In this document: positions 450 to 31,689 of the stretch, piece after piece
Numbering within the stretch: position 1 is the first letter of the stretch
Layout: each line of letters begins with the position of its first letter
NCBI RefSeq assembly: GCF_003966335.1
Contig: NZ_CP034549.1
Location: 1,710,001-1,742,000 of the forward strand
Length of the DNA: 32,000 nt
Direction of reading: 5' to 3'
Origin: Nonlabens ponticola
GTDB lineage: Bacteria; Bacteroidota; Bacteroidia; Flavobacteriales; Flavobacteriaceae
The notes under the pieces: generated by a model
The model's database searches: none
The model's input: the letters and a program-made list of their open reading frames with translations, nothing else
What the model was told of the DNA's origin: nothing
Made by a program: the position numbers and the translations under genes

Positions 450-970
450 ACGTATTGACGACAGACATATGCAAACTTAGAGCCGTCGATCCAGAAGATC
501 TTGACTTTATTTATGCCCTTGAAAACAATCCTGATCTTTGGGATGTAGGTCACACGTTGACACCCTATTCAAAATATACTATACGAGAGTATCTAGAGAA
601 CGCGCATCGTGATATTTATGAAGTAAAACAATTGCGTCTCGCCATTTGCAGGCAAGATGATTCTATTATAGGAGTGGTAGATTTATATGATTTTGATCCC
701 TATCACAAGCGCGCTGGTGTAGGTATCGTGATTTCTAGCACCATCGACCGATCTAAAGGTTATGCCACGGCAGCGATGCAGCTCATGATCAATTATGCCT
801 TCAGGCACTTGAGATTACACCAGTTGTATGCTGGTGTCTCAGAGGATAATCTGGCTAGTAGAAAATTATTTGAAAAGTTACGCTTTCGCGAAAGCGGAAT
901 AAAAAAAGACTGGATTGCTACCGAAACTGGATTCAAGGACGAGATCCACTATCAATTGATCAATGAATAA
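446..970 (+). CDS. GNAT-family N-acetyltransferase (RimJ/RimL-like)
   Basis: 174-aa ORF with an acetyl-CoA motif-A-like segment GVGIVISSTIDRSKGYATAAM. Translationally coupled to dapF. Confidence 0.75.
   Translation: MNVLTTDICKLRAVDPEDLDFIYALENNPDLWDVGHTLTPYSKYTIREYLENAHRDIYEVKQLRLAICRQDDSIIGVVDLYDFDPYHKRAGVGIVISSTIDRSKGYATAAMQLMINYAFRHLRLHQLYAGVSEDNLASRKLFEKLRFRESGIKKDWIATETGFKDEIHYQLINE
881..896. repeat. palindrome copy 1: CGCTTTCGCGAAAGCG (16 bp perfect)
   Basis: Inside the GNAT CDS, read as R-F-R-E-S. Confidence 0.95.
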
Positions 971-2009
971 TTACAAAAAAATCATATTAGGCGTTGTGTT
1001 GTTAGGTCTAGTAGGCATGGCCGTTTTTGCTTACAATGTGTATCAAACATTCTTTGGACCCAATACAAATTTTACCAGCGAGAATTATGAAGTCCTTATA
1101 CCTACTGGTGCCGATTACAATGAGGCATTCCACATTATAGCCGATGCAGTCGAGGATCGTGACGCTTTTCACAATACCGCAGTACGTAAGGGCTATCATA
1201 AAAATGTGAAACCTGGACGTTATTTATTACGGCCTGGAATGAATAATAATGAGATAATCAATACCGTACGCAGTGTAAACGTTCCTGTCAAGTTGCGGTT
1301 CAATAATCAGGAGCGACTTGAGGATCTAGCTGGTAGAATTGCCATGCAGATCGAGCCTGATAGTTTGTCACTGCTCATGGCCATGCAGGACCCGACTTTT
1401 CTCAAGGCTCATGGTTTTACTCGCGAGAATGCGCTTGCCATGTATTTACCCAACCAATATGACACTTATTGGAATAGCAGCGCGACAGAATTTAGAGATA
1501 AAATGCTGCGTCAATATCAAGCTTACTGGAATAGTAACAGATTGCAAAAAGCCGCGCGGCTAGAAATGACACCACAAGAAGTGGTGACTCTGGCTTCTAT
1601 CGTTCATAAGGAAACTGCCAAAGTTGACGAACGGCCGCGCGTCGCTGGTGTTTATATCAATAGGCTAGAAAGTGGTATCAAGCTAGATGCAGATCCAACG
1701 GTAATCTATGCTAAAAAAATGGCTGATAACGATTTTAATCAGGTTATCAAGCGCGTTCTATATAAGGATCTGGTCATAGATCAGCCGTACAATACATACC
1801 GTAATGCTGGATTACCACCAGGCCCTATCGTTACTCCAGATTTAAGCGCTATCGATGCGGTGCTCAATCATGAGGATCATGGGTACTATTTCTTCGTCGC
1901 AGACGTGGAAAACTTTGGTTATCACAAGTTTGCACGCACATTGAGCCAGCATAATGCAAATGCTGCGGCATATCGACGATGGGCAAATGAGCGCAAAATC
2001 ACTCGATAA
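963..2009 (+). CDS. mltG: endolytic murein transglycosylase MltG (YceG-like)
   Basis: Single N-terminal TM helix followed by a YceG-type core: LASIVHKETA, RPRVAGVYINRL, DADPTVIYA, YNTYRNAGLPPGPI. Confidence 0.85.
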   Translation: MNNYKKIILGVVLLGLVGMAVFAYNVYQTFFGPNTNFTSENYEVLIPTGADYNEAFHIIADAVEDRDAFHNTAVRKGYHKNVKPGRYLLRPGMNNNEIINTVRSVNVPVKLRFNNQERLEDLAGRIAMQIEPDSLSLLMAMQDPTFLKAHGFTRENALAMYLPNQYDTYWNSSATEFRDKMLRQYQAYWNSNRLQKAARLEMTPQEVVTLASIVHKETAKVDERPRVAGVYINRLESGIKLDADPTVIYAKKMADNDFNQVIKRVLYKDLVIDQPYNTYRNAGLPPGPIVTPDLSAIDAVLNHEDHGYYFFVADVENFGYHKFARTLSQHNANAAAYRRWANERKITR

Positions 2010-2191
2010 TTCTCAAATTCGACGTTTTGCATGTAATTCATTCTCAATTCTTATGAGAATTACAACGTTTGCGTAGATTTTTCACATAATTATAGGAATT
2101 AACTTACACGTTTTAACGCTGTAATGGCGTGCCTTTGCTCGGTTTTATTGTAATATAAGCGGTATAAATAGCTGTTTAACAATATTTTAGA

Positions 2192-2219
2192 TTGTAACTT
2201 GTTTAAAGTCGTAAATTTG
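2192..2219 (+). promoter_or_regulatory. candidate Bacteroidota-type promoter (TTG-N17-TAAATTTG)
   Basis: TTG at 2192-2194 and TAAATTTG at 2212-2219 match the -33 TTG / -7 TAnnTTTG consensus. It lies about 45 nt upstream of the ATG at 2265. Confidence 0.35.
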
Positions 2220-2264
2220 CAGCGTTTTTAGAAAGAGTGACAGCAGCTTTCTCAATCACAAACT

Positions 2265-2921
2265 ATGAGAACACAAATAACTCAATTGCTAGCATATCCG
2301 TTGATATTGATCATGGGATTCTTTCTTTTCAAAAAAGATCGTGTGAGTAAGATAAGTGTTAAGGCTCACCAAGAGTCAAGGATGACTTATATTAAGAGTA
2401 ATGCAGCCTCACCTTACGGTCCATTTTTAGAGGATTACAACTTTGAGATTGATGATGTTAGAGATTTTTCTCTGGCTACATCATCTGCAGACTCATTTAT
2501 CTCATTCAAAGAAGCTCTTGCATTTAAAGAATCTCAAGGTAAGTACTGGAAAGTAAATTCCTTAGGGTATCTAGGGAAATACCAGTTTGGTATGACCACA
2601 CTCAACCAATTAGGTGTGCGTGATTCCTTAAGTTTCATGCGATCACGCAAATTGCAAGAGCGTGTTTTCCTTAAAAATATACGTTATAACCACAAGCAGC
2701 TACAAGATTATATTGATCGCTATGAAGGTCAAACGATTGGTGGTGTAGAAGTAACTGAGAGCGGTATTTTAGCCGCAGCTCACCTGAGTGGTGTAGGCGG
2801 CGTCAAGAAATATTTGCGCACTAACGGTCGTGGTCGCAGTCGCGATGCTTACGGTAGCTCCGTGCGTGGATACATGAAACGCTTTGCAGGTTATAATTTA
2901 AGTGAAGTGCTTACTAAATAG
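2265..2921 (+). CDS. membrane-anchored lysozyme-like / SLT-like protein (function unproven)
   Basis: N-terminal hydrophobic anchor. The C-terminal half has transglycosylase-like motifs FKESQG (Glu-Ser), GYLGKYQFG and GILAAAHLSG. Confidence 0.5.
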   Translation: MRTQITQLLAYPLILIMGFFLFKKDRVSKISVKAHQESRMTYIKSNAASPYGPFLEDYNFEIDDVRDFSLATSSADSFISFKEALAFKESQGKYWKVNSLGYLGKYQFGMTTLNQLGVRDSLSFMRSRKLQERVFLKNIRYNHKQLQDYIDRYEGQTIGGVEVTESGILAAAHLSGVGGVKKYLRTNGRGRSRDAYGSSVRGYMKRFAGYNLSEVLTK

Positions 2922-2926: not shown

Positions 2927-3655
2927 CTATTTGCGCGCACCAAAGATGGCGCTGCCTATCCTAATCATCGTGCTTCCTTCTTCAAGGGCAATTTCATAAT
3001 CACCAGTCATTCCCATAGATAATTCATCGAACTGGTGTCTTGAATCTAGTAATTTTTGTTGCTTTACTGTGTCAAAAAGTCCTTTGAGAACTTTAAACTC
3101 TTGACGTACTTGGTCCTTATCATCGGTAAAGGTGGCCATTCCCATCAAACCTCTTACTTGAACATTTTCTAAAGATTTGAAAGCATCACTTGCTAAGTAA
3201 TCAAGCAGATCATCTTTATCAAAACCATATTTTGATTCCTCATCTGCGATATGCACTTGTAGCAATCCGTTGATGATTCTATCGTTTTTTATGGCTTCTT
3301 TATTCACTTCCTTGATGAGTCGCGGTGAATCAAGACTATGTATCAAATGCACATATGGAGCCATGTATTTCACCTTGTTACGTTGTGTATGACCTATCAT
3401 GTGCCACTTGATATCTTTAGGTAATAGGTCATGCTTTTCGGTCATTTCTTGGATCTTATTTTCACCAAAATGGCGCTGACCAGCATTATAAGCCTGCTGC
3501 AAATCTTGTATGGGTTTTGTTTTGCTCACAGCCACTAGAGTAGCTTTGGGTTGTACGCTTTCGTCCCGTGTCGTTGCACGGGACAAACTCAAGTCGTCAA
3601 TGACTTCCTTGAAGCGTAATATTGAAGAGGTTATATCACTCATTTTCAAATTCAT
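2927..3655 (-). CDS. yggS: YggS-family pyridoxal-phosphate homeostasis protein
   Basis: Motifs LVAVSKTKP (PLP lysine), HFGENKIQE, WHMIGHTQRNK, SMGMTGDYE and IRIGSAIFG. The start is ATG 3655 or 3643; both overlap the stop of the upstream gene. Confidence 0.85.
   Translation of the reverse strand: MNLKMSDITSSILRFKEVIDDLSLSRATTRDESVQPKATLVAVSKTKPIQDLQQAYNAGQRHFGENKIQEMTEKHDLLPKDIKWHMIGHTQRNKVKYMAPYVHLIHSLDSPRLIKEVNKEAIKNDRIINGLLQVHIADEESKYGFDKDDLLDYLASDAFKSLENVQVRGLMGMATFTDDKDQVRQEFKVLKGLFDTVKQQKLLDSRHQFDELSMGMTGDYEIALEEGSTMIRIGSAIFGARK
3554..3563. repeat. palindrome half-site TACGCTTTCG
   Basis: Inside yggS, directly abutting an 8-bp-stem hairpin (3563-3584). Confidence 0.5.
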
Positions 3656-5352: not shown

Positions 5353-6240
5353 CTATTGAAACGCTTTTGAAATCTTTTCTGCCTTTCTAGATTCAGAATA
5401 ATCGTAGAAACCTTCTCCAGATTTCACCCCTTTTTTACCGGCCATCACCATGTTAACGAGCAATGGACACGGCGCATACTTGGGATTTTTGAATCCATCA
5501 TACATCACATTGAGAATAGATAGACACACGTCAAGTCCTATAAAGTCTGCTAATTGTAATGGTCCCATTGGGTGTGCCATACCTAATTTCATAACCGTAT
5601 CAATTTCTGCTACACCAGCCACGCCATTATACAAGGTTTCAATAGCCTCATTAATCATTGGCATCAAGATGCGGTTTGCTACAAATCCTGGGTAGTCGTT
5701 CACCTCAGTTGGTGTTTTTCCTAGCTTTCGCGAAAGCGTCATAATGGTCTCTGTCACTTCATCGCTGGTGCTATATCCACGTATGATCTCTACCAACTTC
5801 ATGATCGGTACAGGATTCATAAAGTGCATACCAATTACCTTATCAGGTCGCTGTGTCACTGCTGCAATTTGAGTAATAGAAATGGATGAGGTATTTGTCG
5901 CTAGGATGCAATCTGCTGGCGCATGGGCATCTAACTCACCAAAAATCTTCAACTTGAGCTCCACATTTTCAGTAGCTGCTTCAACCACAAGGTCGGCTTC
6001 CTTGATGCCATCTGTAAGACTTGTAAATGTCTTGATATTGCCCAATGTACTTTCTTTATCTGCCTCGCTAATTTTTTCCCTAGCGATCATACGATCCAGA
6101 TTCTTTCCTATCGTGGCGAGACCTCTATTAATATTTGCCTGTGACACATCAACAAGTGAAACCGTGAATCCTGATTGTGCAAAAGTGTGTGCAATCCCAT
6201 TACCCATGGTGCCTGCGCCTATAACTGATATCTTTTTCAT
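5353..6240 (-). CDS. hbd: 3-hydroxybutyryl-CoA / 3-hydroxyacyl-CoA dehydrogenase
   Basis: ISVIGAGTMGNGIA Rossmann motif, plus NTSS, GMHFMNP, PGFVANR and GMAHPMGP. Confidence 0.85.
   Translation of the reverse strand: MKKISVIGAGTMGNGIAHTFAQSGFTVSLVDVSQANINRGLATIGKNLDRMIAREKISEADKESTLGNIKTFTSLTDGIKEADLVVEAATENVELKLKIFGELDAHAPADCILATNTSSISITQIAAVTQRPDKVIGMHFMNPVPIMKLVEIIRGYSTSDEVTETIMTLSRKLGKTPTEVNDYPGFVANRILMPMINEAIETLYNGVAGVAEIDTVMKLGMAHPMGPLQLADFIGLDVCLSILNVMYDGFKNPKYAPCPLLVNMVMAGKKGVKSGEGFYDYSESRKAEKISKAFQ
5724..5737. repeat. palindrome copy 2: GCTTTCGCGAAAGC (14 bp perfect)
   Basis: Inside hbd (minus strand), read as L-S-R-K. Confidence 0.95.
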
Positions 6241-6269: not shown

Positions 6270-7238
6270 TTATAGTTGTTTAAAATTCTCAATGATTTGC
6301 ATGGCAACATCTAGTGCTCGTGTACCATCTTCCAGATTGACAATAGGCCTGGTATCATTTTCAATCGCATCTGCAAAGGTTTCCAATTCCATCAAAATGG
6401 CGTTGGTTGCGGCGATATCTGGATTGTCAAAATAGATTTGTTTTTTAATTCCTTCGGCATTTTGAAGGATCATGTCAAAGTCACCAGGCGTTTCTGGCGC
6501 GTCCTTCATGCGTACTACTTCAACAGCTTTGGTCAAGAAATCGACTGATATATAAGCATCACGCTGGAAGAATCGTGCTTTGCGCATTTTTTTGAGACTT
6601 ATGCGACTTGCTGTAAGATTTGCCACACAACCGTTCTCAAACTCGATGCGTGCGTTGGCAATATCAGGAGTTTCTGAAATCACACTTACGCCACTAGCAC
6701 TCACGCTTTTCACCTCGCTTTTCACGACGCTCAAGATGGCGTCTATATCATGTATCATTAGATCCAGCACCACGCTCACGTCAGTACCTCTTGGATTGAA
6801 TTCTGCCAATCTATGTGACTCGATGAACATAGGATTATCGATGCGGTCGTGTACAGATCTAAAGGCGTCGTTAAAGCGCTCGACGTGTCCTACCTGGCCT
6901 TTGACATTATGCTTTCGCGAAAGCGTAATCAATTCCTGCGCCTGTGCAACAGTAACGGTAATAGGTTTTTCAATAAATAAGTGTTTACCAGCTTCTAGGA
7001 CTTTCTTGCCGCTATCATGATGGTAGGTGGTAGGCGTCACGACGTCTATCATGTCACAAGCCTCAATGAGCTCGTCAAGATTATCATAGAATTTGTAACC
7101 TAATTCTTGCTCCAACTGCTTGCCGTGCACGGAATCGGTATCATAAAATCCAATTAGATCATATCGATCGCTTTGCTGTAAGAGTTTGAGGTGGATCTTG
7201 CCTAAATGGCCAGCTCCCATGACACCTGCTTTTAACAT
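6270..7238 (-). CDS. Gfo/Idh/MocA-family NAD(P)-dependent oxidoreductase
   Basis: N-terminal GVMGAGHLGKIH Rossmann segment and the family EKP motif (LFIEKPIT). Confidence 0.8.
   Translation of the reverse strand: MLKAGVMGAGHLGKIHLKLLQQSDRYDLIGFYDTDSVHGKQLEQELGYKFYDNLDELIEACDMIDVVTPTTYHHDSGKKVLEAGKHLFIEKPITVTVAQAQELITLSRKHNVKGQVGHVERFNDAFRSVHDRIDNPMFIESHRLAEFNPRGTDVSVVLDLMIHDIDAILSVVKSEVKSVSASGVSVISETPDIANARIEFENGCVANLTASRISLKKMRKARFFQRDAYISVDFLTKAVEVVRMKDAPETPGDFDMILQNAEGIKKQIYFDNPDIAATNAILMELETFADAIENDTRPIVNLEDGTRALDVAMQIIENFKQL
6911..6924. repeat. palindrome copy 3: GCTTTCGCGAAAGC (14 bp perfect)
   Basis: Inside the Gfo/Idh/MocA CDS (minus strand), read as L-S-R-K. Confidence 0.95.
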
Positions 7239-9006: not shown

Positions 9007-9885
9007 TTATTTGTTATAGGCCATCGCAAAATCTTTGGCAAAATCTGCAAGGCCCACCTTTCCTAATTGCTTTGGTTTATGGTTATCATAATCTTGGTTA
9101 AGCCTGCCGTTTTCAAGACTTTGGTACATCTCAGTATAAAGTTGTGCGATGGACTCAGGTATCCCATTATCAATCATACCTTTTTTGACAGCTGCATCGT
9201 CAATAATTTCCCATTTTAAATCTGGTTTACCTATTGCCGCTCCTAGCGTTGCAGCAATCTCCTTACCTGTATGATGCGAGCTGGCGATGTACTTGAAAAT
9301 ACTGCTCTGTTCTTTTACAAGCTCTTGTGATGCTACGGTCGCGATGTCCCTAGGTGAGACTAATGGGAATGACTTACTTCCATAGTTTGCCATGATTTTA
9401 CCTGTGTACTTGATCATATCAATATTGTGCATCAAATTGTAGTAGAAGTAGGTAGGCCTCAATATGGTCAATTCGATATTGGGTATCGCGCTTATTATTT
9501 GCTCTGTAAAGTAGGACCCTAATATAGGTCCAGTGCCGTAGCTCAAGTGAGCCCCAAAACTACTTAATAATACCACTCTCTTTACCGCAGTTAGTTCAAT
9601 GGCTTTGGCATATACTGCCGCCGTCTTGCGATAATATTCTCGTATATCTGGCTGCTGGTAGTCTGGTGGACACATTAGGAATACTGATTCCGCTTTCGCG
9701 AAAGCGGAAACTAAAAAATCCACATCCTGCAATGATCCAATCATAGGCGTCGCGCCCAGATCCTCAATTTGTGAGGCTCTAGCTGGTGAATGGCTAATGA
9801 TAGTCAGGTCGTGACCTTGTTCCTGCAATTGTTGCGCAAGCGGTTGACCAATGTTTCCCAAAGAGCTTGCAAGTGTGATATTCAT
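9007..9885 (-). CDS. NmrA-like / atypical SDR NAD(P)-binding protein
   Basis: 292 aa with a degenerate N-terminal dinucleotide-binding segment (ASSLGNIGQPLAQQL). A 2-nt gap to the AraC gene suggests an operon. Confidence 0.65.
   Translation of the reverse strand: MNITLASSLGNIGQPLAQQLQEQGHDLTIISHSPARASQIEDLGATPMIGSLQDVDFLVSAFAKAESVFLMCPPDYQQPDIREYYRKTAAVYAKAIELTAVKRVVLLSSFGAHLSYGTGPILGSYFTEQIISAIPNIELTILRPTYFYYNLMHNIDMIKYTGKIMANYGSKSFPLVSPRDIATVASQELVKEQSSIFKYIASSHHTGKEIAATLGAAIGKPDLKWEIIDDAAVKKGMIDNGIPESIAQLYTEMYQSLENGRLNQDYDNHKPKQLGKVGLADFAKDFAMAYNK
9688..9709. repeat. palindrome copy 4: TTCCGCTTTCGCGAAAGCGGAA (22 bp perfect)
   Basis: Inside the NmrA-like CDS (minus strand), read as S-A-F-A-K-A-E. 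Confidence 0.95.
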
Positions 9886-10338: not shown

Positions 10339-10352
10339 GCTTCTGCGAAAGC
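10339..10352. repeat. palindrome copy 5, degenerate (GCTTCTGCGAAAGC, 12/14)
   Basis: Intergenic, 10 nt beyond the stop of the 827-aa gene. Confidence 0.6.
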
Positions 10353-13374: not shown

Positions 13375-13426
13375 ACAATCGCAAATATAATTTAATGAGT
13401 TGCAGGCATCGTTATATATTTGTGAA

Positions 13427-14188
13427 ATGCAAAAAGCCCTTTTATCACTCCTATTATTAGTATTTATAACGATTGCCAGCTGTAATCAGGATCACATCAA
13501 TCCTGCGACCATTGTCGAGGAAACAATGATGGCACACGGCACTGATGTCATGGATAATGCTACTGTTGATTTTAATTTTAGAGGTATCGACTATAGCGTG
13601 AGTCGTAGTAATGGTTATTTTGAGTACTCGCGCAGTTTTAATCAAGCAGGTAACAAGGTCGTGGATCGATTGACCAACGATGGTTTTACCAGGAGCATCA
13701 ACGATAGCATTGTGCAATTGCCAGATTCTTTATCCAGCCGATATCGATCTAGCCTTAACAGCGTTGTATATTTCGCTCAGTTACCATACGGTCTGGACAA
13801 TCCAGCAGTAAATCTTGAATATCTAGGAACTGACAGCATCAAGCAAAACAAGTATCACGAGATCAAGGTTACTTTTGATGAGACTGGTGGTGGCGAGGAT
13901 CACGAGGATGAATTCTTGTACTGGATCAACGTGCAGGATTCCCTAATAGATTATTTAGCATATTCCTATTGCGAGGAAGATTGTGGATTACGCTTTCGCG
14001 AAAGCATAAACCGCAAAAACATAAAAGGAATCGTAATACAGGATTACAACAATTATAATCCAGAACAAGAGGCTGCAGAACTCGAGGATCTTGATCGTCT
14101 TTTTGAAAAAGACCAGCTCAATTTACTGAGCACCATACGTACAGAATTTCCAGAAGTAAGCCTCAATGACGAGGTCGCAGATCTATGA
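13427..14188 (+). CDS. hypothetical lipoprotein
   Basis: ATG at 13427 gives the lipoprotein signal MQKALLSLLLLVFITIASC. The track start at 13400 is TTG. Confidence 0.55.
   Translation: MQKALLSLLLLVFITIASCNQDHINPATIVEETMMAHGTDVMDNATVDFNFRGIDYSVSRSNGYFEYSRSFNQAGNKVVDRLTNDGFTRSINDSIVQLPDSLSSRYRSSLNSVVYFAQLPYGLDNPAVNLEYLGTDSIKQNKYHEIKVTFDETGGGEDHEDEFLYWINVQDSLIDYLAYSYCEEDCGLRFRESINRKNIKGIVIQDYNNYNPEQEAAELEDLDRLFEKDQLNLLSTIRTEFPEVSLNDEVADL
13992..14005. repeat. palindrome copy 6: GCTTTCGCGAAAGC (14 bp perfect)
   Basis: Inside the lipoprotein CDS (plus strand), read as R-F-R-E-S. Confidence 0.95.
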
Positions 14189-15935: not shown

Positions 15936-15936
15936 G

Positions 15937-16716: not shown

Positions 16717-16825
16717 TTGCCTAATTATTTGATTATCAATATGAAGAATTAATTGGGCTTTAACGTTTCCTTGTAAACCACAACATGTTTGCTCGCGTAT
16801 GTTTACTGTAAACAAAAACATACAC

Positions 16826-19920: not shown

Positions 19921-20622
19921 TTACTTCATTTGTGTATAGTCACAAATGGATTGTATAATTATTTTCTTGTCAATCTTCTTAGCCTCAATAAACCGTTCTA
20001 TTTTTGAGACTCTTTTATCATAATTGATTGTTTTCCTTTCTAAATGTAATGATTTAGGAGCTTTGAAACCAGCTTTGAGCATTTCGTATTCGGTTGCAAA
20101 AGGTAAAAGCGGTGCATGGTATTTCATCTTGGGGTTTAATATATATGCTATGGATGCGAGCTTTTCACTGTCAACTTTTGTCTGGTCGGTATGTTTTAGA
20201 ATCCATCTTTCATGGACGACATTATTAATAGTTGTATCATTTATTTGATTATAGGCAGTATATTCAATAACATCCTTAAACGGATTACTAAGTGGGTCAA
20301 CATCACGGCAAGGAATACTAATAAACTCAGCTTTTATAAAGTCAGCCTTTTTCATTTTAGATTCAGATTTCAAGCCATTACGATCAAACATATATATCAT
20401 GTAATTTTCATTGTCGTGAGGCATTAAAAGAGCATAGTAATCGCTAGTAGCCGAATTGGTCAAGTATAATTTTGTAACAGGATATTCTGTATCGTTTCCT
20501 GGCTTTACAAAATCTTCCACTAGTGTATATTGGTATTCTAAGACATGATCGAACTCATAGACCTTTTGCGCGCTGGCTTGTTGAATAAAGAAGATAAATA
20601 CTAGTAAAGAAGAATATTTCAT
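19921..20622 (-). CDS. hypothetical secreted protein (orphan, AT-rich gene)
   Basis: ATG at 20622 gives the signal peptide MKYSSLLVFIFFIQQASA. No recognisable domain. Local GC is clearly below that of the neighbours. Confidence 0.5.
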   Translation of the reverse strand: MKYSSLLVFIFFIQQASAQKVYEFDHVLEYQYTLVEDFVKPGNDTEYPVTKLYLTNSATSDYYALLMPHDNENYMIYMFDRNGLKSESKMKKADFIKAEFISIPCRDVDPLSNPFKDVIEYTAYNQINDTTINNVVHERWILKHTDQTKVDSEKLASIAYILNPKMKYHAPLLPFATEYEMLKAGFKAPKSLHLERKTINYDKRVSKIERFIEAKKIDKKIIIQSICDYTQMK

Positions 20623-20970
20623 TAACTGTTTTTTGTTCAATTAAATTGATTTTATCTAAGTATAACGTAAAACATTTACCTGCCCAAATCATTCCTATTA
20701 AGATTCATTATCAGTCTTGAACTAAGAATTGTGATTAGAGCACTGGCCGATTTTTTTTTACAAAAAAAAGTATGCTTTTCTGATGCATCAAGCACAAACA
20801 CCTGCGAATCAAAATTTAGTTGAGAATTGACTTAAGCTACTTTAAATTAATCACTGCTAATGTGGATTGCTCGTAGAAGAGCCGCGAGGTCAAAGCAATG
20901 TTAGCACTACTAAATTGCGTTGCATAACTCCAATTAAAAACGATTGTTTATTCAAATGCCAATCAACTGA

Positions 20971-22347: not shown

Positions 22348-22367
22348 AAATCGATTGGGATGTTCAT

Positions 22368-22964: not shown

Positions 22965-23043
22965 TGGTTGTTATTTAAGTTAGTGAATGTAATAATTAGT
23001 ACAGGCTTGACCTTGACTTTCACAATTCTTTATAGATGACAAA

Positions 23044-23535
23044 TCAAGGATATAATTTCTCAAATTTCATAGGGTTGTTATTTCCTATCTTGAGATTTTC
23101 CATGGCATTAAGTGCGATGTCAACACGTTTTTGTGAATCCTTGACACCGTACACCATGAATATGATGTTACGCTGTTTGCCTGGCAATAGTTTTTCAAAG
23201 AGTTCGTAGGCTTCATGATCGCTCAATAAAACGGCTTCCAGCTCTTCGGTCATGGGAGCTTGATATTTGCTAGTATCTTCATGCATGCTTACATGAACCT
23301 CGTCGCCTTGATCTATATTGAGGAGTTTCTTGTTAGCCTTAGAACACATCAAGTAAAACATTCCTTTCTTCTTTATGACACCAGCATAAAGAGTAATTTC
23401 GTTTTTACCAGAAGTAACAGTGGCAACGACTCTTTTAATTTTGGATACAGTTAGTTGGTCTGCTATATCTTCAGGTATTGGCAAGGCGCCCATCCAGCCA
23501 TCGGTACTCAACTGCGTTTCAAATTCAAAAATCAT
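23044..23535 (-). CDS. DUF1905 / YdeI-like two-domain protein
   Basis: 163 aa. The N-terminal beta-barrel-like part (GALPIPEDIADQL...ATV) and C-terminal helical part (LLPGKQRNIIFMVYGVKDSQKRVDIA) resemble DUF1905 plus YdeI/OmpD-associated domains. ATGA overlap with the upstream gene. Confidence 0.6.
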   Translation of the reverse strand: MIFEFETQLSTDGWMGALPIPEDIADQLTVSKIKRVVATVTSGKNEITLYAGVIKKKGMFYLMCSKANKKLLNIDQGDEVHVSMHEDTSKYQAPMTEELEAVLLSDHEAYELFEKLLPGKQRNIIFMVYGVKDSQKRVDIALNAMENLKIGNNNPMKFEKLYP

Positions 23536-24746
23536 TCTACTACATTAGTTATAATCTGCGTTTGGGAATGCATGGTACGATGTACGGGACACTTATCGGC
23601 AATTTGTAGTAATTTCTCTAACTGTTTTTCATCTAAGTCGCCCGTGAATTTAATTTCTCTCGTAAACGTATCAATTTTTGATTTCTCGTCTTCGCAGTTT
23701 GCACAGTCGGCGGCGTGTTGTTTGTCATAATTCACGTGACATTCAATATTGTCTAGTGGCCATTCCTTGCGCCGCGCGTACATCTGTACGGTCATTACTG
23801 TACAGGACGCTAGTGCGCTAGACATGAGTTCATAAGGCGTTGGGCCAAAATCATTTCCCTGCACACTTTCTGGTTCATCAGCTATAAAATAATGTCTTCC
23901 AGCTTTCATCTGTGTGGTAAACATACTTTCTTGATCAAGACTGGCGACTACGTGATGATTAGTATCGATAGAATCTTCCTCTGGTATTTCTACATATCTG
24001 GAAGCCCATCCAGCAATGACCTCACCTACATACTTAGAATCATTTTTGTTGGTCAACAAATGATCTGCTCCATCCAAACTCACAAAACTCTTAGGATGGA
24101 TTGCCGCATGATACAGCTTTTCTGCATGATTAATACTTACCGTATCATCCTGTGGTGAATGGCAAATGAGTAAAGGCTTGCGCAATTCTTTCAGCGTTTT
24201 GATGACCATTTGCTCATTGATATCACGCAAGAATTGCTTTTTAATCCTAAACGGTCTACCGCTCAACTGTACTACGGCTTCACCATTTGCTTCAATAGCT
24301 TTAATTTGATCGCCAAAAAGATGCTTCACATGATCAGTATCACTAGGAGCTCCGATTGTTGCAAGGGCTTTAATGGATTTCGCTTTCGCGGAAGCATAAA
24401 CCACAGCAGCACCGCCCAAAGAATGACCTATCAGTAGGCTAGGAGCTTTGTAGTGCTGTGCCAGATGGTCGATCGCTGCAAGCAGATCGTCAACGTTTCC
24501 AGAGAAATTGGTATCACCAAAATCGCCCTCGGAATCGCCCAAGCCTGTAAAATCAAATCGCAATACACCATAACCAGCCGTCGTTAGGGCACGTGAGATA
24601 TTGCGTGTAGCACTAAAGTTTTTACTGCAGGTAAAACAATGAGCAAACACCGCATAATTATGTGGATGCCTATCTGCCGGTAATTCGAGCCTGCCACTCA
24701 ATTGATAGCCTGCTTGATTAGTAAACTCTATTTTTTCAAAATTCAT
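23532..24746 (-). CDS. bifunctional alpha/beta-hydrolase - OsmC-family fusion protein
   Basis: N-terminal hydrolase with the nucleophile elbow GHSLGG. The C-terminal OsmC-like domain has two Cys contexts (ALASCTVMT, ADKCPVHRT). Confidence 0.8.
   Translation of the reverse strand: MNFEKIEFTNQAGYQLSGRLELPADRHPHNYAVFAHCFTCSKNFSATRNISRALTTAGYGVLRFDFTGLGDSEGDFGDTNFSGNVDDLLAAIDHLAQHYKAPSLLIGHSLGGAAVVYASAKAKSIKALATIGAPSDTDHVKHLFGDQIKAIEANGEAVVQLSGRPFRIKKQFLRDINEQMVIKTLKELRKPLLICHSPQDDTVSINHAEKLYHAAIHPKSFVSLDGADHLLTNKNDSKYVGEVIAGWASRYVEIPEEDSIDTNHHVVASLDQESMFTTQMKAGRHYFIADEPESVQGNDFGPTPYELMSSALASCTVMTVQMYARRKEWPLDNIECHVNYDKQHAADCANCEDEKSKIDTFTREIKFTGDLDEKQLEKLLQIADKCPVHRTMHSQTQIITNVVE
24382..24395. 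repeat. palindrome copy 9 (GCTTTCGCGGAAGC, 13/14)
   Basis: Inside the hydrolase-OsmC CDS (minus strand), read as A-S-A-K-A. Confidence 0.8.
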
Positions 24747-24760: not shown

Positions 24761-27700
24761 TTAATCTTCCCAGATGTCAAGTTCTACCTGCTTCATGGCT
24801 GTTTTATACTCGTCCCATTCCTTGTTAAGAAAAGCTCTACTTTTCATCATCGCTTGACTCGCAGCGTCTTGAGTTTGTTTTGTCAATTGTTCTTCAGTAG
24901 CCGTTTGAGCACCTTGTCTACTAGCGATATAGCTGCGAGCCGTTCCCAATCGTTGCATGACGGTAACGCCAGGATTACGTGTTATTCCTTGTCGATCATC
25001 AGTGGCACCAAAGTATCGCGCTTGCTCTTCTTCAATGCTTTTTATAATACTATCAGTAGCTTTAATTTGTTCTTTAAATGCTTCTTTGTCCTTGTCTTGT
25101 AACATTTTCTTGAAAGTGGTAGCCGTTTGTTTTGCTTTGGCCAGTTCCTGAGTCAATTCATAAATATCTCCAGATAACTTTTCATGATTTTTGAGTGCCT
25201 GATACTTTTCTTTTCTATCGGCAGCTGTTAATTCATCGATTCTTGGGTCATCTTGCACGGTAATCATAGTCTCGCTGCTGTAATCACCTAGTTCAAGCAC
25301 AGCCTTGTAGGTACCAGGAAGCACGCTCACACCGGATGGCTCACGTGTAGATTTATTTACACTTCTAGATGGATAATTCTCACCGCTTTCCCTCAATCTC
25401 CAGCTCCATTCATGAACGCCAGCTTCCTTGGGAGTCTTGCTCTTCAAGGTTCTGATCAATCGATCACCGTCATAGATTTTAAGTTGAAGACTATCTGTTC
25501 CAACGGTGTCACTTTCTTTGAGCAAAGCTTTGTCAAAGAAATATTTGAATCTACCGCTGCTACCACGGTTTTCACCTTGGTACATCGCATCACCGCTAAA
25601 TCTTGTTCCCGTAGGTTGCTGGTATCTCGCTTGATAAGCGACTGGTGGTTCAAATAATTTGATTGGTTTTTTAAATTTCGCATTCTGTGAAGCTATCTCA
25701 CGCATAGGCCTGAGATCGTCCAGCACCCAAGCCGCACGACCAAAAGTTCCAATCACAAGGTCCTGCTCACGCGGATGAATTACTAGATCTTTAACCGAAA
25801 CCGTTGGAAAACCATTGGTATATTTTGTCCAGTTATCACCAGCATCGATGCTCACATACAGTCCATCATCCGTTCCTAGAAAAACAAGGTTGTTTTCTTC
25901 TGGGTCTTCAACGATGGATAAGGTGTAACTCTCCACATCATCTGCATCTACAATGCGCGTCCAAGACTTTCCATAGTTGGTGGTGCGGTATGCATAAGGC
26001 TCATAGTTATAGCGACGGTAATCGTTTGCAATAAGTAGAGCGTGACCGGCTTTAGTCTGTGAGGCCTTAATTTGTGCGATCCAGCTACCCTTAGGCAAAC
26101 CTTTGAGACCACTGCTTACATTTTTCCAGTTTTTACCACCATCCGTGGTTACATGAATTAATCCATCGTCAGATCCTGTATAGATTACGCCTTTTTCTAC
26201 TGGACTAGGTTCTATCACCAGAATAGTCGTGTGATTTTCTGCGCCTGTAGCGTCCATGGTCAGTCCACCAGAATCGCTTTGCTTTTGCTTTTCTGGATCG
26301 TTGGTGGTAAGATCTGGACTTATAACTTTCCAGGTCAATCCTTTATCTGTGGATTTGTGTACAAATTGACTACCAAAATACAGCGTCGATGGATCAAAAG
26401 GATCAATATTTATCGCAGCATTCCAATTGAATCGCAGTTCCAAATTAGGATCTGGATGAGTAGGTCGCACGCTGTAATTATTGCCAGTTTCCCAGTCATA
26501 GCGACTTACATATCCTTGCTGGCTCATGCTATAACCATAGCGATTATTGGTAGGATCAGGTACCACGTCAAATCCATCACCAAAACTTATTTCCTGCCAG
26601 TAAGAATTTCTAATGCCCTGATCTCTCCAAGTGTAGGCTGGACCGCGCCAGCTACCATTATCCTGCATACCACCATACACATTATAAGGAATTTCCATAT
26701 CCACATTAATGTGATAGAATTGAGCGACTGGCAAGTTTCCTATGAATCGCCATGTTTTACCGCGATCTCTTGTGATATTGAGACCACCATCATTACCATC
26801 AATCATAAACGATCCATCCTTTGGATGAATGTACCACGAGTGGTGATCTGGATGCACACCGTTATTCGCACCGTATGCGTTCATCAATTGATCAAAGTTT
26901 TTACCACCATCTTCTGAGACGTTCACGTAAGTGAAAATGGAATAAACTCGATTTTCATTTTGAGGATCCACATAGATTTCAGAATAGTAGAATGGTCTAT
27001 TTCCTATATCGCTCTTGTCATTGATCATTTTCCAATTAAAACCACCATCGACAGATTTATAAAGCGCATTCTTTTTGGATTCAATAAGTGCATACACTGT
27101 TTTAGGATCGCTAGGAGCAATGGCAACACCTATTCTTCCTAGCTCGCCAGCTGGTAAGCCGTCGTCCTCGGTCATTTTTTTCCAATTCTCACCACCGTCG
27201 TAAGTGATGTACAAACCAGAGCCTTCACCACCTGATTTAAAAAACCATGGGTCGCGCTTGTGTTCCCACATGGCAGCGATCAATTTGTTGGGATTGGATG
27301 GATCTATAACAAGGTCTGCTGCGCCTGATCTATCGTTTGTGTAAAGAATCTTATTCCATGTTTTACCACCATCTGTTGTTTTGAAAACACCACGCTCTGG
27401 ATGCTCACCCCATGGTGATCCTATGGCCGCGGCATAAACGACATTGGGATTTGTTGGATCGATGACAATTCTATGAATGTGGCGTGTTTCTTCAAGTCCC
27501 ATGGATTTCCAGTTCTTACCACCATCCAGAGACTTGTAAATTCCATAACCGCCGTTGAGTGAGTTGCGAGGATTTCCTTCGCCAGTTCCTACCCAGATTA
27601 CACTAGGATTTGATTGCTGTACGGCAACCGCACCTATGGATGCAGTCACCTGATCGTCAAAAATGGGCATCCATGCAATGCCGCCACTTTCTGATTTCCA

Positions 27701-27895
27701 CAGGCCACCGCTGGCGGTACCAGCATAAATTACATCAGGATCATTCTCAACCACGTCGATGGATGTGATACGTCCAGACATACCACCTGGCCCGATGTTT
27801 CTAGGTTTCATATTCTTCACCAGTTCAAGATCTAATGGTTGCCCTAGACTCAAAACAGGTACAAGAAGTAATAATAGGATGGATAGTTTTTTCAT
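24761..27895 (-). CDS. BNR/sortilin(VPS10)-like repeat protein with helical C-terminal extension
   Basis: ATG at 27895 gives the signal peptide MKKLSILLLLLVPVLSLG. Repeated S/T-x-D-x-G-x-x-W motifs (SLDGGKNW, TTDGGKTW, YDGGENW, SVDGGFNW, SEDGGKNF, TRDRGKTW, STDKGLTW, TTDGGKNW). Confidence 0.7.
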   Translation of the reverse strand: MKKLSILLLLLVPVLSLGQPLDLELVKNMKPRNIGPGGMSGRITSIDVVENDPDVIYAGTASGGLWKSESGGIAWMPIFDDQVTASIGAVAVQQSNPSVIWVGTGEGNPRNSLNGGYGIYKSLDGGKNWKSMGLEETRHIHRIVIDPTNPNVVYAAAIGSPWGEHPERGVFKTTDGGKTWNKILYTNDRSGAADLVIDPSNPNKLIAAMWEHKRDPWFFKSGGEGSGLYITYDGGENWKKMTEDDGLPAGELGRIGVAIAPSDPKTVYALIESKKNALYKSVDGGFNWKMINDKSDIGNRPFYYSEIYVDPQNENRVYSIFTYVNVSEDGGKNFDQLMNAYGANNGVHPDHHSWYIHPKDGSFMIDGNDGGLNITRDRGKTWRFIGNLPVAQFYHINVDMEIPYNVYGGMQDNGSWRGPAYTWRDQGIRNSYWQEISFGDGFDVVPDPTNNRYGYSMSQQGYVSRYDWETGNNYSVRPTHPDPNLELRFNWNAAINIDPFDPSTLYFGSQFVHKSTDKGLTWKVISPDLTTNDPEKQKQSDSGGLTMDATGAENHTTILVIEPSPVEKGVIYTGSDDGLIHVTTDGGKNWKNVSSGLKGLPKGSWIAQIKASQTKAGHALLIANDYRRYNYEPYAYRTTNYGKSWTRIVDADDVESYTLSIVEDPEENNLVFLGTDDGLYVSIDAGDNWTKYTNGFPTVSVKDLVIHPREQDLVIGTFGRAAWVLDDLRPMREIASQNAKFKKPIKLFEPPVAYQARYQQPTGTRFSGDAMYQGENRGSSGRFKYFFDKALLKESDTVGTDSLQLKIYDGDRLIRTLKSKTPKEAGVHEWSWRLRESGENYPSRSVNKSTREPSGVSVLPGTYKAVLELGDYSSETMITVQDDPRIDELTAADRKEKYQALKNHEKLSGDIYELTQELAKAKQTATTFKKMLQDKDKEAFKEQIKATDSIIKSIEEEQARYFGATDDRQGITRNPGVTVMQRLGTARSYIASRQGAQTATEEQLTKQTQDAASQAMMKSRAFLNKEWDEYKTAMKQVELDIWED

Positions 27896-27932
27896 GAAAA
27901 TAAATTGAGATCTAAAGATAGTCAATCGTTAC

Positions 27933-27946
27933 GCTTTCGCGAAACC
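27933..27946. repeat. palindrome copy 10 (GCTTTCGCGAAACC, 13/14)
   Basis: Intergenic, between the amine oxidase stop and the BNR-protein start. The left flank is TTAC, as in other copies. Confidence 0.8.
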
Positions 27947-27994: not shown

Positions 27995-29059
27995 CTACAA
28001 AATATTCAAAGAGAGCACCTGTTCAAACGCAAGCTGTGCAGACCGTAGTGCGCCTTCCATATAGCCAGCGTGCTGGTCGCTCGTCTCGCTGCCAGCCATA
28101 ATTAATGTGCCGCCATTTAAAGACTGTCTCAAGATGGGATGACCATTATTCTCATGAGGCGTGCGCAAATTTTGAGCATCTGGATTTGTGGAAGGTTGCT
28201 CGTTCCAAGCTGAAAGTTCAAACGATATATAATTATGAACCTCGATGCCCAATAATTCTGCTAATTGATCAACGATTACTTTTTTCCTTTCATCTGCTGG
28301 TAATCTCGTTGCGGTAGGATGAACAAATCCCATCAATGCAAACCGGCTAGATGGATAATGGCTGTAATCATAAAGTTCTGCAATCGGTCCAGAGTTGCTG
28401 AAGGCAGTCGCCGGAATGCCTTTTTCTTTCCAGAATGGTGACTTAAAGCCTAATCCAAATTTGACCGAATCTTCCATCCATGTCTGTGTACGTCGAGCTA
28501 TATAGAGATAATTTATAGGCATCGATGGCTCAAAAGTAATGGCACTTGCCGTGATTTGTGGTGGTATGGTGTTGATGACTACATCTGCGTTATAAATAAT
28601 ATCATTGGTATGAATTTGATATGTATCGCGATGATGGACAACTCGTTGCACGGTGGTATTATATTTTACCTGACCTTCTTTGAGCACAGCATTGAGAGAT
28701 AATATCAAGTTAGAACTGCCACCACGCAACCTATAGCTTGCTGGCTGGTTTGCTGGCATGTCAATCAATTGATAAGAGGTTCCTGGATGAGATTTGTACC
28801 ACACCTTACTATCCATATGCTGCTCTTCATATTTTAGTCCTAGCTTGTCAATTAGGCTTAAAACTTCTCTATTGTAAGACCAGAACCAGGCTGCGCCCAG
28901 ATCGATAGGAGTATGGTTGCCAGACATTTTGGTAAATATGCGGCCGCCAACACGATCCCTAGATTCTAGAATGGTTACCTCAATACCTTGCTGCTGCAGC
29001 TTGTAAGCAAGGCTTAAACCGGTCAAGCCGGCGCCTAATATGATAATAGATCTAGACAT
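27995..29059 (-). CDS. FAD-dependent amine oxidase-family oxidoreductase
   Basis: N-terminal IIILGAGLTGLSLAYKL...LESRDRVGGR dinucleotide motif and a C-terminal LIMAGSETS..AGYMEGAL flavin amine-oxidase signature. Confidence 0.8.
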   Translation of the reverse strand: MSRSIIILGAGLTGLSLAYKLQQQGIEVTILESRDRVGGRIFTKMSGNHTPIDLGAAWFWSYNREVLSLIDKLGLKYEEQHMDSKVWYKSHPGTSYQLIDMPANQPASYRLRGGSSNLILSLNAVLKEGQVKYNTTVQRVVHHRDTYQIHTNDIIYNADVVINTIPPQITASAITFEPSMPINYLYIARRTQTWMEDSVKFGLGFKSPFWKEKGIPATAFSNSGPIAELYDYSHYPSSRFALMGFVHPTATRLPADERKKVIVDQLAELLGIEVHNYISFELSAWNEQPSTNPDAQNLRTPHENNGHPILRQSLNGGTLIMAGSETSDQHAGYMEGALRSAQLAFEQVLSLNIL

Positions 29060-30549: not shown

Positions 30550-30672
30550 AAAGCAATTTTAAGTCAGCATTAAAAATAAAGAATTAAGCAGCATAAGGTT
30601 CAATCTATAGTGAAACTATTGTGCCATACCTACGATATAAAAGGCCTATTTGTTTTAAAAATTTGATGACCT

Positions 30673-30698
30673 TGTAACAAATTGAAAACAGGCTCGTC
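30673..30698 (+). promoter_or_regulatory. candidate ECF-type promoter TGTAAC-N16-CGTC
   Basis: AAC at 30676-30678, a 16-nt spacer and CGTC at 30695-30698, 21 nt upstream of the sigma-factor ATG. This matches the general AAC-N16/17-CGT architecture of ECF autoregulated promoters. Confidence 0.45.
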
Positions 30699-30718
30699 AT
30701 GCCTATAGAGACGTTTAC

Positions 30719-31228
30719 ATGAACCAACCAACTTTCATAGCGACATTTCAAGACGTACAAAAAAGAATGTACCAATTGTCAAGAAGATTGCTCACCTCGC
30801 ACGAGGAAGCAGCAGATGCCGTGCAGGAAACCATGCTCAAGCTATGGGAAAAGCGCGAGAAGTTGAAAGATGTAAATAATAAGGAAGCCTATGCCATGCA
30901 AATGGTGAAGAACTTCTCTCTAGATCGATTGAAGAGTAAGCAGGCTGGACATCTTAAAATTGTCCATAATAATTATGACTCAGGCGATCGCAACGCACAG
31001 GAAGAAATGGAGCGAGCTACCACGGTAAGCACCGTACAGCAGCTCATCGCAGATCTTCCAGAGAATTATAGAATGGTCATACAACTGCGTGACATACAGC
31101 AATATGACTATGAGGCGATAGAGAAAATAATGAATATGAAGGCAACGGCAGTGCGTGTTAGTTTAAGCCGGGCACGCAAGTTGCTTAAAGAACGAATAGA
31201 ACAGTATCACAACACAGAAACAGCATGA
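30719..31228 (+). CDS. ECF-type RNA polymerase sigma-70 factor
   Basis: Region 2 (EAADAVQETMLKLWEK) and region 4 (YRMVIQLRDIQQYDYEAIEKIMNMKATAVRVSLSRARKLL). Confidence 0.85.
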   Translation: MNQPTFIATFQDVQKRMYQLSRRLLTSHEEAADAVQETMLKLWEKREKLKDVNNKEAYAMQMVKNFSLDRLKSKQAGHLKIVHNNYDSGDRNAQEEMERATTVSTVQQLIADLPENYRMVIQLRDIQQYDYEAIEKIMNMKATAVRVSLSRARKLLKERIEQYHNTETA

Positions 31229-31689
31229 ATGATTTGTTAGAAAAATACTGGAATGGTGCTACCAGCCTGCAAGAAGAGCAGCAACTGCGCGATTATTTTG
31301 CAGGAGACTCTGTGGCGAGAAGCCACGAGGTGTACCGCAGCTTGTTCAACAGTTTTGAGCTGGAGAGTAGGTTAGAGGATGGTGATTATGACGCTTTCGC
31401 GAAAGTGAAATCAAAACAATCACAAGACCACATTTTTAACCGCAGAACATGGAAAGGAATCGCCATAGCAGCAAGCATGGCCGTGGCAGTAGCGGTAGGA
31501 ACTGGATATTTTGAGACCCAGCAGCAACAAGATTTAGGCACCTATGAAACGCCTGAAGAAGCGTATGAAGCAACCGTGGCAGCGCTAGAAATGGTAAGTG
31601 CCAGAATCAATAAGGGTAAAAGCACCTTGCAGCCCATGAAAGAAATTAATCAACAAGCAGCGCCAGTCATACAGCTGGCTCAAAAATAA
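31225..31689 (+). CDS. putative anti-sigma / membrane protein of the ECF-DUF4252 module
   Basis: ATGA overlap with the sigma stop. Single TM helix (GIAIAASMAVAVAVGTGYF). No zinc-finger motif. Confidence 0.5.
   Translation: MNDLLEKYWNGATSLQEEQQLRDYFAGDSVARSHEVYRSLFNSFELESRLEDGDYDAFAKVKSKQSQDHIFNRRTWKGIAIAASMAVAVAVGTGYFETQQQQDLGTYETPEEAYEATVAALEMVSARINKGKSTLQPMKEINQQAAPVIQLAQK
31393..31406. repeat. palindrome copy 11 (GCTTTCGCGAAAGT, 13/14; perfect 12-bp core)
   Basis: Inside the anti-sigma-like CDS, read as A-F-A-K-V. Confidence 0.8.

Follow-up and report, generated by a model that had tools for sequence, protein, structure and literature searches.

Words that are hyper-abundant in a genome are rare, and little is understood of what they do. 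Among the highly iterated palindromes (HIPs) of cyanobacteria, the role of the 8-bp HIP1 (GCGATCGC) is still debated after 30 years, and uptake sequences, namely the uptake signal sequences (USS) and DNA uptake sequences (DUS), are known mainly from two proteobacterial families. According to the accessible portions of the published texts, HIP1 is conserved at orthologous sites beyond neutral expectation and has been proposed to supply anchor sites for nucleoid organization (Xu et al. 2018), HIPs are tied to methyltransferases (Elhai 2015), and HIP1 raises transformation efficiency (bioRxiv 10.1101/2024.09.10.611283). The corresponding portions of the uptake-sequence literature report that 65% of Haemophilus influenzae USS copies lie in open reading frames (ORFs) and that USS are significantly evenly spaced (PMC1939737, the latter citing Karlin et al.), and describe uptake sequences as a means of discriminating self from foreign DNA (PMC7811141). 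Here we analyzed a stretch of 32,000 nucleotides of Nonlabens ponticola (NZ_CP034549.1, positions 1,710,001 to 1,742,000; the whole stretch is referred to as the window) that carries many copies of the 14-bp palindrome GCTTTCGCGAAAGC, hereafter the motif. The same word recurs in several related marine genera, where it is spaced with unusual regularity and has been written into genes by point substitution.

A search of the window for the motif returned 11 matches at up to two mismatches, comprising six exact copies, four copies with one mismatch and one copy with two. The same counts had been given in a preliminary description of this DNA. Dinucleotide-preserving shuffles of the window yielded 0.11 matches at this threshold, and none of 100 shuffles reached 11. 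For the exact 14-mer, Markov models of order 0 to 3, trained with or without the copies masked, predict 7e-6 to 1.4e-4 occurrences per window, in line with the value of about 1e-4 proposed earlier. Most of the start coordinates first reported were also right; two were off by one (882 instead of 881, and 16286 instead of 16285), and 9688 proved to be the start of a 22-bp palindrome in which the 14-mer itself begins at 9692. Mapping of ORFs placed nine of the 11 copies inside long frames on both strands and two in intergenic DNA (10339 and 27933), as had been described. The host genes are functionally unrelated housekeeping genes, and their copies use all three reading frames, giving (R)FRES, LSRK and AFAKA. 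Similarity between the flanks of different copies ends after roughly 4 nt on either side, which shows that they do not belong to a longer shared repeat.

Density was measured in a sample retrieved via two unrelated proteins (a 3-hydroxyacyl-CoA dehydrogenase and a DUF5686 protein) and not via the motif. This unbiased sample revealed 36 exact copies in 178,428 bp from eight protein-anchored loci, or one per 5.0 kb. The loci came from N. ponticola, N. marinus, N. dokdonensis, N. spongiae, a Nonlabens lineage of 76% identity, a lineage of 59% identity, Croceiramulus getboli and Dokdonia sp., with GC contents ranging from 31% to 47%; the range of the motif is based on a single 15-22-kb locus per lineage. 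An excess over base composition was central to the initial proposal, and in these 178 kb the motif exceeds the Markov expectation about 1e5 times. Within a 74-kb Nonlabens subset it was by far the commonest word of 10-14 nt, 5e4 to 2e5 times above the order-1 and order-3 Markov predictions (7e-5 to 3e-4 copies expected). Extrapolation from the locus density implies about 570 sites for the 2.87-Mb genome.

To trace how the copies arose, codon alignments of 21 gene families were compared across the loci; these included motif copies at 13 gene-internal positions. No indel was found at any of the 13 sites, and species lacking the motif had the same number of codons with 4-11 mismatches. Because the differences consist of substitutions only, the copies were not inserted but written in situ. 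In the DUF6503 family RFREA became RFRES; in the dehydrogenase ELSKK became TLSRK (Nonlabens) or ELSRK (Croceiramulus); in an oxidoreductase ALVAE gave way to LSRK; and in Croceiramulus an otherwise nearly invariant ETFADAIE was changed to EAFAKAIH (FADA to FAKA). These alignments show that the copies are built by point substitutions, several of them from already motif-like sequence, and at the cost of amino-acid changes.

The same alignments bear on whether the motif is a miniature mobile element, that is, a palindrome resembling repetitive extragenic palindromes (REP), their paired forms (REPIN) or miniature inverted-repeat transposable elements (MITE), or a pair of directly adjoining terminal inverted repeats, that was dispersed by a transposase and came to lie in frame within genes. 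The motif is indeed a high-copy palindrome, and one copy in a YggS-like gene is split within the palindrome by 45 extra nucleotides, which could resemble internal cargo or an insertion target. However, the 13 aligned sites contain no indels and the motif-less species differ at them by 4-11 substitutions at equal codon count, flank similarity ends after about 4 nt, 74% of copies lie within genes, the YggS insert has no second occurrence in the DNA sampled, and no spacing of the arms is enriched except that of the intact motif. We therefore consider a mobile origin barely credible. A longer repeat or mobile element is largely refuted by the unrelated flanks and by orthologues that differ by substitutions and not by indels. 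The preliminary description had named embedding in a longer shared sequence as a refutation of its claim, and the claim survives this check. Its contrast with the extragenic REP, bacterial interspersed mosaic element (BIME) and MITE repeats also holds, the copies being set apart from them by their intragenic share and substitution origin.

We also examined the conservation of individual sites. Exact copies occur at orthologous codons in three to four species, some across genera; one DUF5686 site is common to Dokdonia and Croceiramulus, and the dehydrogenase site is common to Nonlabens and Croceiramulus. Identity in these alignments was 33-49% at third codon positions and 53-72% over all nucleotides. 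With third positions this diverged, chance conservation of 14 consecutive bases is negligible, and the copies appear to have been held exact for long enough for synonymous sites to saturate. Orthologous motif-ascertained stretches at 70-80% identity, none of which overlaps the window, likewise had sites in common. Turnover was observed as well, with the response-regulator copy at 16286 missing in the closest relative and the dehydrogenase copy missing in N. marinus. The preliminary description had asked whether related genera carry the same or a shifted motif; the same motif was present at the Dokdonia and Croceiramulus loci.

Alignment of 147 exact copies showed that the palindrome extends beyond 14 bp. 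A C at -8, or the matching G at +8, was present in 84% of half-sites, and 75% of copies had both; further out, T was found at -10 in 70% and at -11 in 60%, and position -9 was A or C. The conservation at -8/+8 defines the unit as the 16-mer CGCTTTCGCGAAAGCG, within the consensus TT(A/C)C-GCTTTCGCGAAAGC-G(T/G)AA. The functional unit would accordingly be the perfect palindrome CGCTTTCGCGAAAGCG, with a predicted optimum of about (T)TAC-GCTTTCGCGAAAGC-GTA(A), and an extended form of the motif is TTACGCTTTCGCGAAAGCGTAA. The original account of a 14-22-bp palindrome with a 14-mer core was thus correct as to the palindrome, but the unit is a 16-mer that extends to 20-22 bp. Perfect palindromes of 18 bp were found for 60% of intergenic and 25% of coding copies, those of 20 bp for 42% and 8%, and those of 22 bp for 21% and 4%, respectively, so that the palindrome is longer where coding constraint is absent.

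Near copies of the motif were few. In 788 kb, 173 exact copies were identified (0.001 expected by chance), followed by 21 copies with one mismatch (0.06 expected), 16 with two (1.2 expected) and 23 with three (16 expected). TTCGCGAA was found 42 times in the unbiased DNA, each time within a full or near-full copy. Lone 7-nt half-sites occurred there at chance level (20 seen, 14 expected), and no spacer length between GCTTT and AAAGC arms was enriched apart from that of the intact motif. The motif is therefore all or none: exact copies far outnumber near copies, and both halves are required. A role of the core TCGCGA or CGCG as a target of restriction or methylation had been suggested. This received no support, as TCGCGA outside the motif occurred about as often as expected, 13 times against a prediction of about 10.

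These features also bear on a role as a hairpin in RNA or single-stranded DNA, in which the palindrome would form the same stem-loop in either direction and act as a terminator, processing site, stabilizer or priming signal. For the 22-mer, folding energies of -8.3 to -10.5 kcal/mol were calculated (z about -2.3 to -2.6), and intergenic copies are about 2.6-fold enriched, have longer perfect stems and in some cases adjoin runs of A or T. The conserved 14-mer and 16-mer are weak folds, however (-1.9 and -4.3 kcal/mol), the CGCG of the loop varies no more than the stem does, palindromy is lost in all 17 two-mismatch copies, leaving no compensatory variants, most copies lie within genes at about uniform positions, and no Rfam family was matched. 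On this evidence the constraint falls on the sequence and not on a structure, and a hairpin is highly improbable. A structured RNA was rejected given the lack of an Rfam match, the weak core hairpin and the absence of compensatory variants, and an intrinsic terminator (a stable hairpin followed by a U tract 3' of genes) was rejected on account of the low stability of the core (-1.9 to -4.3 kcal/mol) and the mostly intragenic location. Two features of the flanks were recorded besides. In the left flanks of the 147 copies, C is depleted from -12 to -21 (4-9% at most positions, versus about 18%), and T is enriched at -11, -14, -17 and -20, a period of three, with A mirroring it on the right. Among intergenic copies, symmetric -9/+9 pairs occur at 0.71 versus 0.41 from independent frequencies. 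Codon effects, pooled species preferences or a hairpin or template-switch component could account for these patterns.

The spacing of the copies was compared with random placement of an equal number of copies per stretch. Across all motif-bearing DNA, the 64 gaps between exact copies included none below 500 bp (8.6 expected) and one below 1 kb (16.6 expected), and their coefficient of variation (CV) was 0.45 (0.85 for random placement). In the protein-anchored loci, counting copies with up to one mismatch, none of 36 gaps was below 500 bp (4.4 expected) and one was below 1 kb (8.3 expected), with a CV of 0.40 (random 0.86). No simulation was as regular as the observed data, among 2000 for all motif-bearing DNA and 5000 for the protein-anchored loci. 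Typical gaps were 2.2-4.9 kb when one-mismatch copies were counted. The copies thus avoid one another below about 1-2 kb. Since the chance rate of the motif is effectively zero, each copy needs a positive force to arise, and that force evidently vanishes once a neighbour lies within about 1-2 kb. Such regularity, which no process blind to neighbouring copies could produce, speaks against a mutational or gene-conversion bias that is purely site-autonomous; gene conversion had been among the roles first proposed.

With respect to genes, 74% of copies were in ORFs and 26% were intergenic; as non-coding DNA makes up at most about 10%, this amounts to a 2.6-fold intergenic enrichment. Coding copies fell into the three frames 53, 29 and 27 times, their position along genes was about uniform (Kolmogorov-Smirnov P = 0.07), and only one of 95 coding copies lay less than 30 nt from the stop codon. 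A gene-level signal was ruled out by the use of all frames together with the roughly uniform positions.

Regular spacing is a difficulty for methylation-linked repair bias of the HIP1 type (Elhai's model), in which the motif would be a by-product without a coverage function. An orphan methyltransferase would mark TCGCGA or CGCG, and methylation-dependent short-patch repair would convert near-cognate sequences, each site on its own. In favour of this model, the motif shows the HIP1 pattern, being a perfect, GC-rich palindrome, rich in CpG at its centre, that arose by substitution within genes in all frames; a patchy taxonomy would suit a mobile methyltransferase gene; C>T is the commonest single deviation (8 of 21); and Elhai, in the accessible part of the text, reports a cognate methyltransferase with each alternate HIP. 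Such a site-autonomous process predicts random spacing, yet the copies avoid each other below 1-2 kb. Moreover, TCGCGA and CGCG are at expected frequency outside the motif and TTCGCGAA never occurs outside it, which demands a specificity of at least 14-16 bp, far beyond known methyltransferase sites. No methyltransferase was found among 654 frames, a weak test given the small sample, and a Nonlabens phage carries no copy. We rate this explanation as unlikely, though it is the strongest of the rivals considered.

A recombination hotspot resembling Chi would accommodate the spacing. Here a nuclease of the AddAB/RecBCD type would recognize the motif while resecting breaks and so mark self DNA, the palindrome acting in both orientations. 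The density of about one per 5 kb equals that of Chi in Escherichia coli, the phage of the genus lacks the motif, and a distance-dependent benefit that saturates near neighbours would fit the gaps. Known Chi sites are asymmetric 5-8-mers that are read on one strand, modestly over-represented and oriented with replication, whereas a perfect palindrome of 16-22 bp without half-site enrichment is unlike single-strand recognition. A Chi-like role is accordingly very unlikely in our judgement.

The taxonomic range was then assessed. No copy at up to two mismatches was present in 65.8 kb of outgroup loci from Oceanihabitans, Leeuwenhoekiella and Altibacter, and no recurring 12-14-mer was detected there as an alternative word. 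Nonlabens phage P12024S (35.7 kb) also had no copy at up to two mismatches, where about seven are predicted at host density; the motif is therefore a feature of the chromosome rather than of whatever DNA replicates in the host. A scan of one genome for each of 185,579 species with the exact 14-mer matched at least 120 stretches of 8 kb. Among the matches listed, 57 stretches came from named Dokdonia or Nonlabens assemblies (including Flavobacteria bacterium BBFL7) and 26 from uncultured Flavobacteriaceae (with the named ones about 83 of 120), often with two or three copies each; the remainder were mostly lone matches in unrelated, GC-richer genomes. A neighbour-joining tree of DUF5686 and SmpB joined Nonlabens and the 59% lineage with 100% support, and left Croceiramulus and Dokdonia (motif present) unresolved together with Leeuwenhoekiella and Altibacter (motif absent). 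Because genera with and without the motif are mixed in the tree, the distribution is patchy, which points to losses or to transfer of whatever acts on the motif. Taken together, these data indicate that the motif is specific to a patchy set of marine Flavobacteriaceae comprising Nonlabens, Dokdonia, Croceiramulus and probably some Aquimarina.

Several further observations concern this range. Two uncultured Aquimarina stretches (L071, at 7055, and L110) have a motif copy in common, where 32 nucleotides are identical although the region around them matches at only 69%, and L110 carries copies at 157 and 1090, 933 bp apart; the motif may thus extend to some Aquimarina. Viral contigs from IMG/VR (L124-L203 and beyond) mostly have single copies, including contigs of about 50 kb labelled UViG 29747xxxxx (uncultivated viral genomes) with one each. 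A few are at host-like density, for example L176 with three copies in 11 kb, and may derive from motif-bearing flavobacteria, either as prophages or as host DNA wrongly classed as viral. The longest gap seen, 9.3 kb, is in Dokdonia sp. (L243:13173-22487); it holds a 2663-residue ORF without a Pfam match and a DUF4062 gene, and may be a recently acquired island. In the N. spongiae locus (L247), the 12-mers AGCTCCAAGCTC and AAGCTCCAAGCT occur five times each, a pattern suggestive of a short tandem repeat; neither is related to the palindrome. The literature was searched for the 14-mer and for its 13-mer and 12-mer, and no published description of the motif, or of such a repeat in these genera, was found. 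Papers on Dokdonia or Nonlabens and 'palindrome' were all irrelevant by their titles and the openings of their abstracts, and the accessible text of Elhai (2015) does not mention the motif-bearing taxa. A match to TTCGCGAA in a paper on plasmid RA3 corresponded to mutagenic oligonucleotides and is unrelated.

We lean, with modest confidence, towards the interpretation that the motif is a genomic word of the HIP1 and uptake-sequence class, read as duplex DNA by a dimeric protein and kept by a force that saturates with neighbouring sites. The reader would be a clade-specific, sequence-specific homodimer, each subunit of which would contact a half-site of 8-11 bp. Sites would be created and kept by selection or by a drive from uptake and recombination, and this force would depend on the distance to the next site and saturate once one lies within a few kilobases. 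As one site per few kilobases would suffice, the motif would serve as a chromosome-wide 'coverage' or 'self' tag. Two uses seem most plausible and fit about equally well. The motif could tag conspecific DNA so that it is recognized for uptake or recombination, or its copies could anchor a protein that organizes the nucleoid. More tentatively, and with somewhat less conviction than for the general interpretation, we envisage a self-marking system in which a dimeric protein reads about 600 evenly spaced palindromes of 16-22 bp; depending on the protein, this would be the first palindromic uptake or recombination tag and the first outside Proteobacteria, or else a novel type of nucleoid-organizing system whose sites far outnumber those of any known one.

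A number of points count against this preferred interpretation. Known uptake sequences lack symmetry, measure 9-12 nt and have numerous imperfect copies, and the palindromes bound by ParB (parS), Noc and SlmA number tens per genome, compared with about 600 implied for the motif. No binding protein, methyltransferase or competence receptor was identified in the sampled DNA, a crude motif-based screen of its 654 open frames gave no methyltransferase-like candidate, and a literature search on natural competence gave no report of it for Nonlabens or Dokdonia. Some of the common positions could be convergent gains at pre-adapted sequence and not inheritance. The -9/+9 symmetry of intergenic copies could reflect a component of hairpin formation or template switching, or merely pooled species preferences. 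Finally, the DNA behind the density, spacing and range amounts to about 180 kb that is unbiased and about 600 kb that was ascertained through the motif.

The individual copies in the window differ in extent and history. Among the exact copies, that at 9692 is the sole perfect 22-mer, those at 882 and 16286 are 16-mers, and the remainder are 14-mers. The first (882..895, within the perfect 16-mer CGCTTTCGCGAAAGCG at 881-896) lies in a GNAT acetyltransferase gene (446..970), is read RFRES and is exact at the same codon position in N. marinus and N. dokdonensis, hence in three Nonlabens species in all. The copy at 5724..5737, in the 3-hydroxyacyl-CoA dehydrogenase gene on the minus strand (5353..6240), is read LSRK; the site is exact in Croceiramulus, has one mismatch in N. 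dokdonensis, and has no copy in N. marinus, the 59% lineage or Oceanihabitans (ELSKK). LSRK is also encoded by the copy at 6911..6924, in a GFO/IDH/MocA oxidoreductase gene (6270..7238, minus strand). An exact copy also occupies this codon position in N. marinus, N. dokdonensis and the 59% lineage (four lineages with the window); the site reads ALVAE in Oceanihabitans and ALAKK in Croceiramulus. The perfect 22-bp palindrome TTCCGCTTTCGCGAAAGCGGAA (9688..9709, with the 14-mer at 9692-9705) is in an NmrA-like gene on the minus strand (9007..9885) and is read AFAKA. Two exact copies are read RFRES downstream. That at 13992..14005 is in the DUF6503 gene (13400..14188) and is exact at the same codon in three further lineages, with outgroups having RFREA and 4-6 mismatches. 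That at 16286..16299, a perfect 16-mer, falls in the inter-domain linker of a LytTR response-regulator gene (15904..16716); the closest relative, L242, has no copy at the orthologous position (10 mismatches), so the gain or loss is recent.

The degenerate copies were located in the same way. The two-mismatch copy GCTTCTGCGAAAGC (10339..10352) lies between genes, 10 nt past the stop codon of the DUF5686 gene (10362..12845, minus strand), and L242 has an exact copy in an 18-bp perfect palindrome, TCCGCTTTCGCGAAAGCGGA, 22 nt downstream of its DUF5686 gene. The one-mismatch copies are GCTTTCGCGAAAAC (18529..18542) in a TPR gene (18243..19538), exact at the orthologous position of L242; GCTTTCGCGGAAGC (24382..24395) in a gene for a hydrolase-OsmC fusion (23532..24746, minus strand); GCTTTCGCGAAACC (27933..27946), intergenic between genes at 24761..27925 and 27995..29059, both on the minus strand; and GCTTTCGCGAAAGT (31393..31406) in an ORF (31225..31689) for a possible anti-sigma factor downstream of a gene for an extracytoplasmic-function (ECF) sigma factor. 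A twelfth, split copy occupies 3554..3619 on the minus strand, at the N-terminus of the YggS-like gene (2927..3655), and consists of TTACGCTT, a 48-nt segment and CGAAAGCGTA. The segment stands in place of the central TCG, a net gain of 45 nt or 15 extra in-frame amino acids, and holds an 8-bp hairpin of its own (GTCCCGTG-CAACGA-CACGGGAC); it had no second occurrence in any DNA sampled for this study. In N. marinus and N. dokdonensis the motif is intact at this position (LRFRESV). The split copy raises the possibility that the palindrome is fragile at its centre or serves there as a target for insertion.

The proportion of degenerate copies also differed between loci. The N. ponticola window has six exact and five degenerate copies besides the split one, compared with 28 exact and three degenerate copies in six other motif-bearing loci (L121, L122, L242, L243, L246 and L247; Fisher P = 0.02), and at two of the degenerate window sites (18529 and 10339) the exact form is kept in the closest relative. 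The motif may therefore be eroding in N. ponticola, although the numbers are small. The widest motif-free gap in the window (18543-24381) contains a Pfam-less ORF (19921..20640) in DNA of lower GC content. Elsewhere in the window, DUF4331 is represented by two adjacent ORFs (16799..17518 and 17543..18169) that match the N- and C-terminal parts of the Pfam model. It is split likewise in L242 (5271-5957 and 4630-5298), and the division is thus a conserved arrangement and not a frameshift error.

The motif adds a third, independent case of a hyper-abundant genomic word, in ecologically important marine flavobacteria that bear proteorhodopsin. It reveals a requirement at the level of DNA that overrides protein sequence, as in the change of the otherwise invariant FADA to FAKA. 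With 16-22 exact positions its information content is very high, and a pull-down or DNA affinity purification sequencing (DAP-seq) should give one clear protein; the existence of close genera with and without the motif permits phyletic profiling for the responsible gene. In practice, the motif is a near-diagnostic marker for the binning of Nonlabens, Dokdonia and Croceiramulus contigs, and it may matter for the genetic manipulation of these bacteria.

Comparison with described systems places the motif closest to HIPs and uptake sequences. REP, BIME, REPIN and MITE sequences are, like it, high-copy palindromic repeats dispersed over the bacterial chromosome; they are extragenic, longer, imperfect, looped and spread by transposition or duplication, whereas the motif is mostly intragenic, loop-less, exact and born by substitution. 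The sites of chromosome-organizing proteins (parS for ParB, the Noc and SlmA sites, and matS) resemble it as near-perfect palindromes of 13-16 bp that are read by dimers, scattered, often intragenic and conserved, and both the palindromy and the all-or-none need for two halves would fit dimer sites of the ParB/Noc type. These systems have tens of sites per genome and not the roughly 570-600 implied here, and the half-site register differs by eye, with TTTC lying 1 bp nearer the centre in the motif than in parS (TGTTTCAC|GTGAAACA) or the Noc site (ATTTCCC|GGGAAAT).

USS and DUS are likewise hyper-abundant, with copies in the hundreds to thousands, mostly intragenic (74% for the motif versus 65% for H. 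influenzae USS), derived by point mutation, enriched between genes and common to related genera, and the lack of the motif in the one host-genus phage examined would parallel, by analogy, their role in telling self from foreign DNA. In contrast to these asymmetric 9-12-mers, which have graded imperfect copies and occur about once per kilobase, the motif is a perfect palindrome that is all or none and occurs once per 5 kb. The analogy with HIP1 and uptake sequences drawn in the preliminary description fits the data. HIP1 and the alternate HIPs match it further as GC-rich perfect palindromes vastly over-represented in one lineage. Like HIP1, the motif has coding and non-coding copies that arose by substitution, sites conserved between genomes beyond neutral expectation and a non-random large-scale distribution, and neither has an established function. 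The motif differs in that it is 16-22 bp long and not 8 bp, about five times sparser (one per 5 kb versus up to one per gene), and hosted by Flavobacteriaceae and not cyanobacteria, with a sequence that is neither GCGATCGC nor a listed alternate HIP. Its internal hexamer is not itself enriched, no methyltransferase was found for it in the crude screen of 654 frames, unlike the cognate enzymes of HIPs, and it has an exclusion zone below 1-2 kb, compared with the 10-90-kb periodicity reported for HIP1. Descriptively, therefore, the motif is a highly iterated palindrome, yet in sequence, length, phylum and spacing it is not HIP1.

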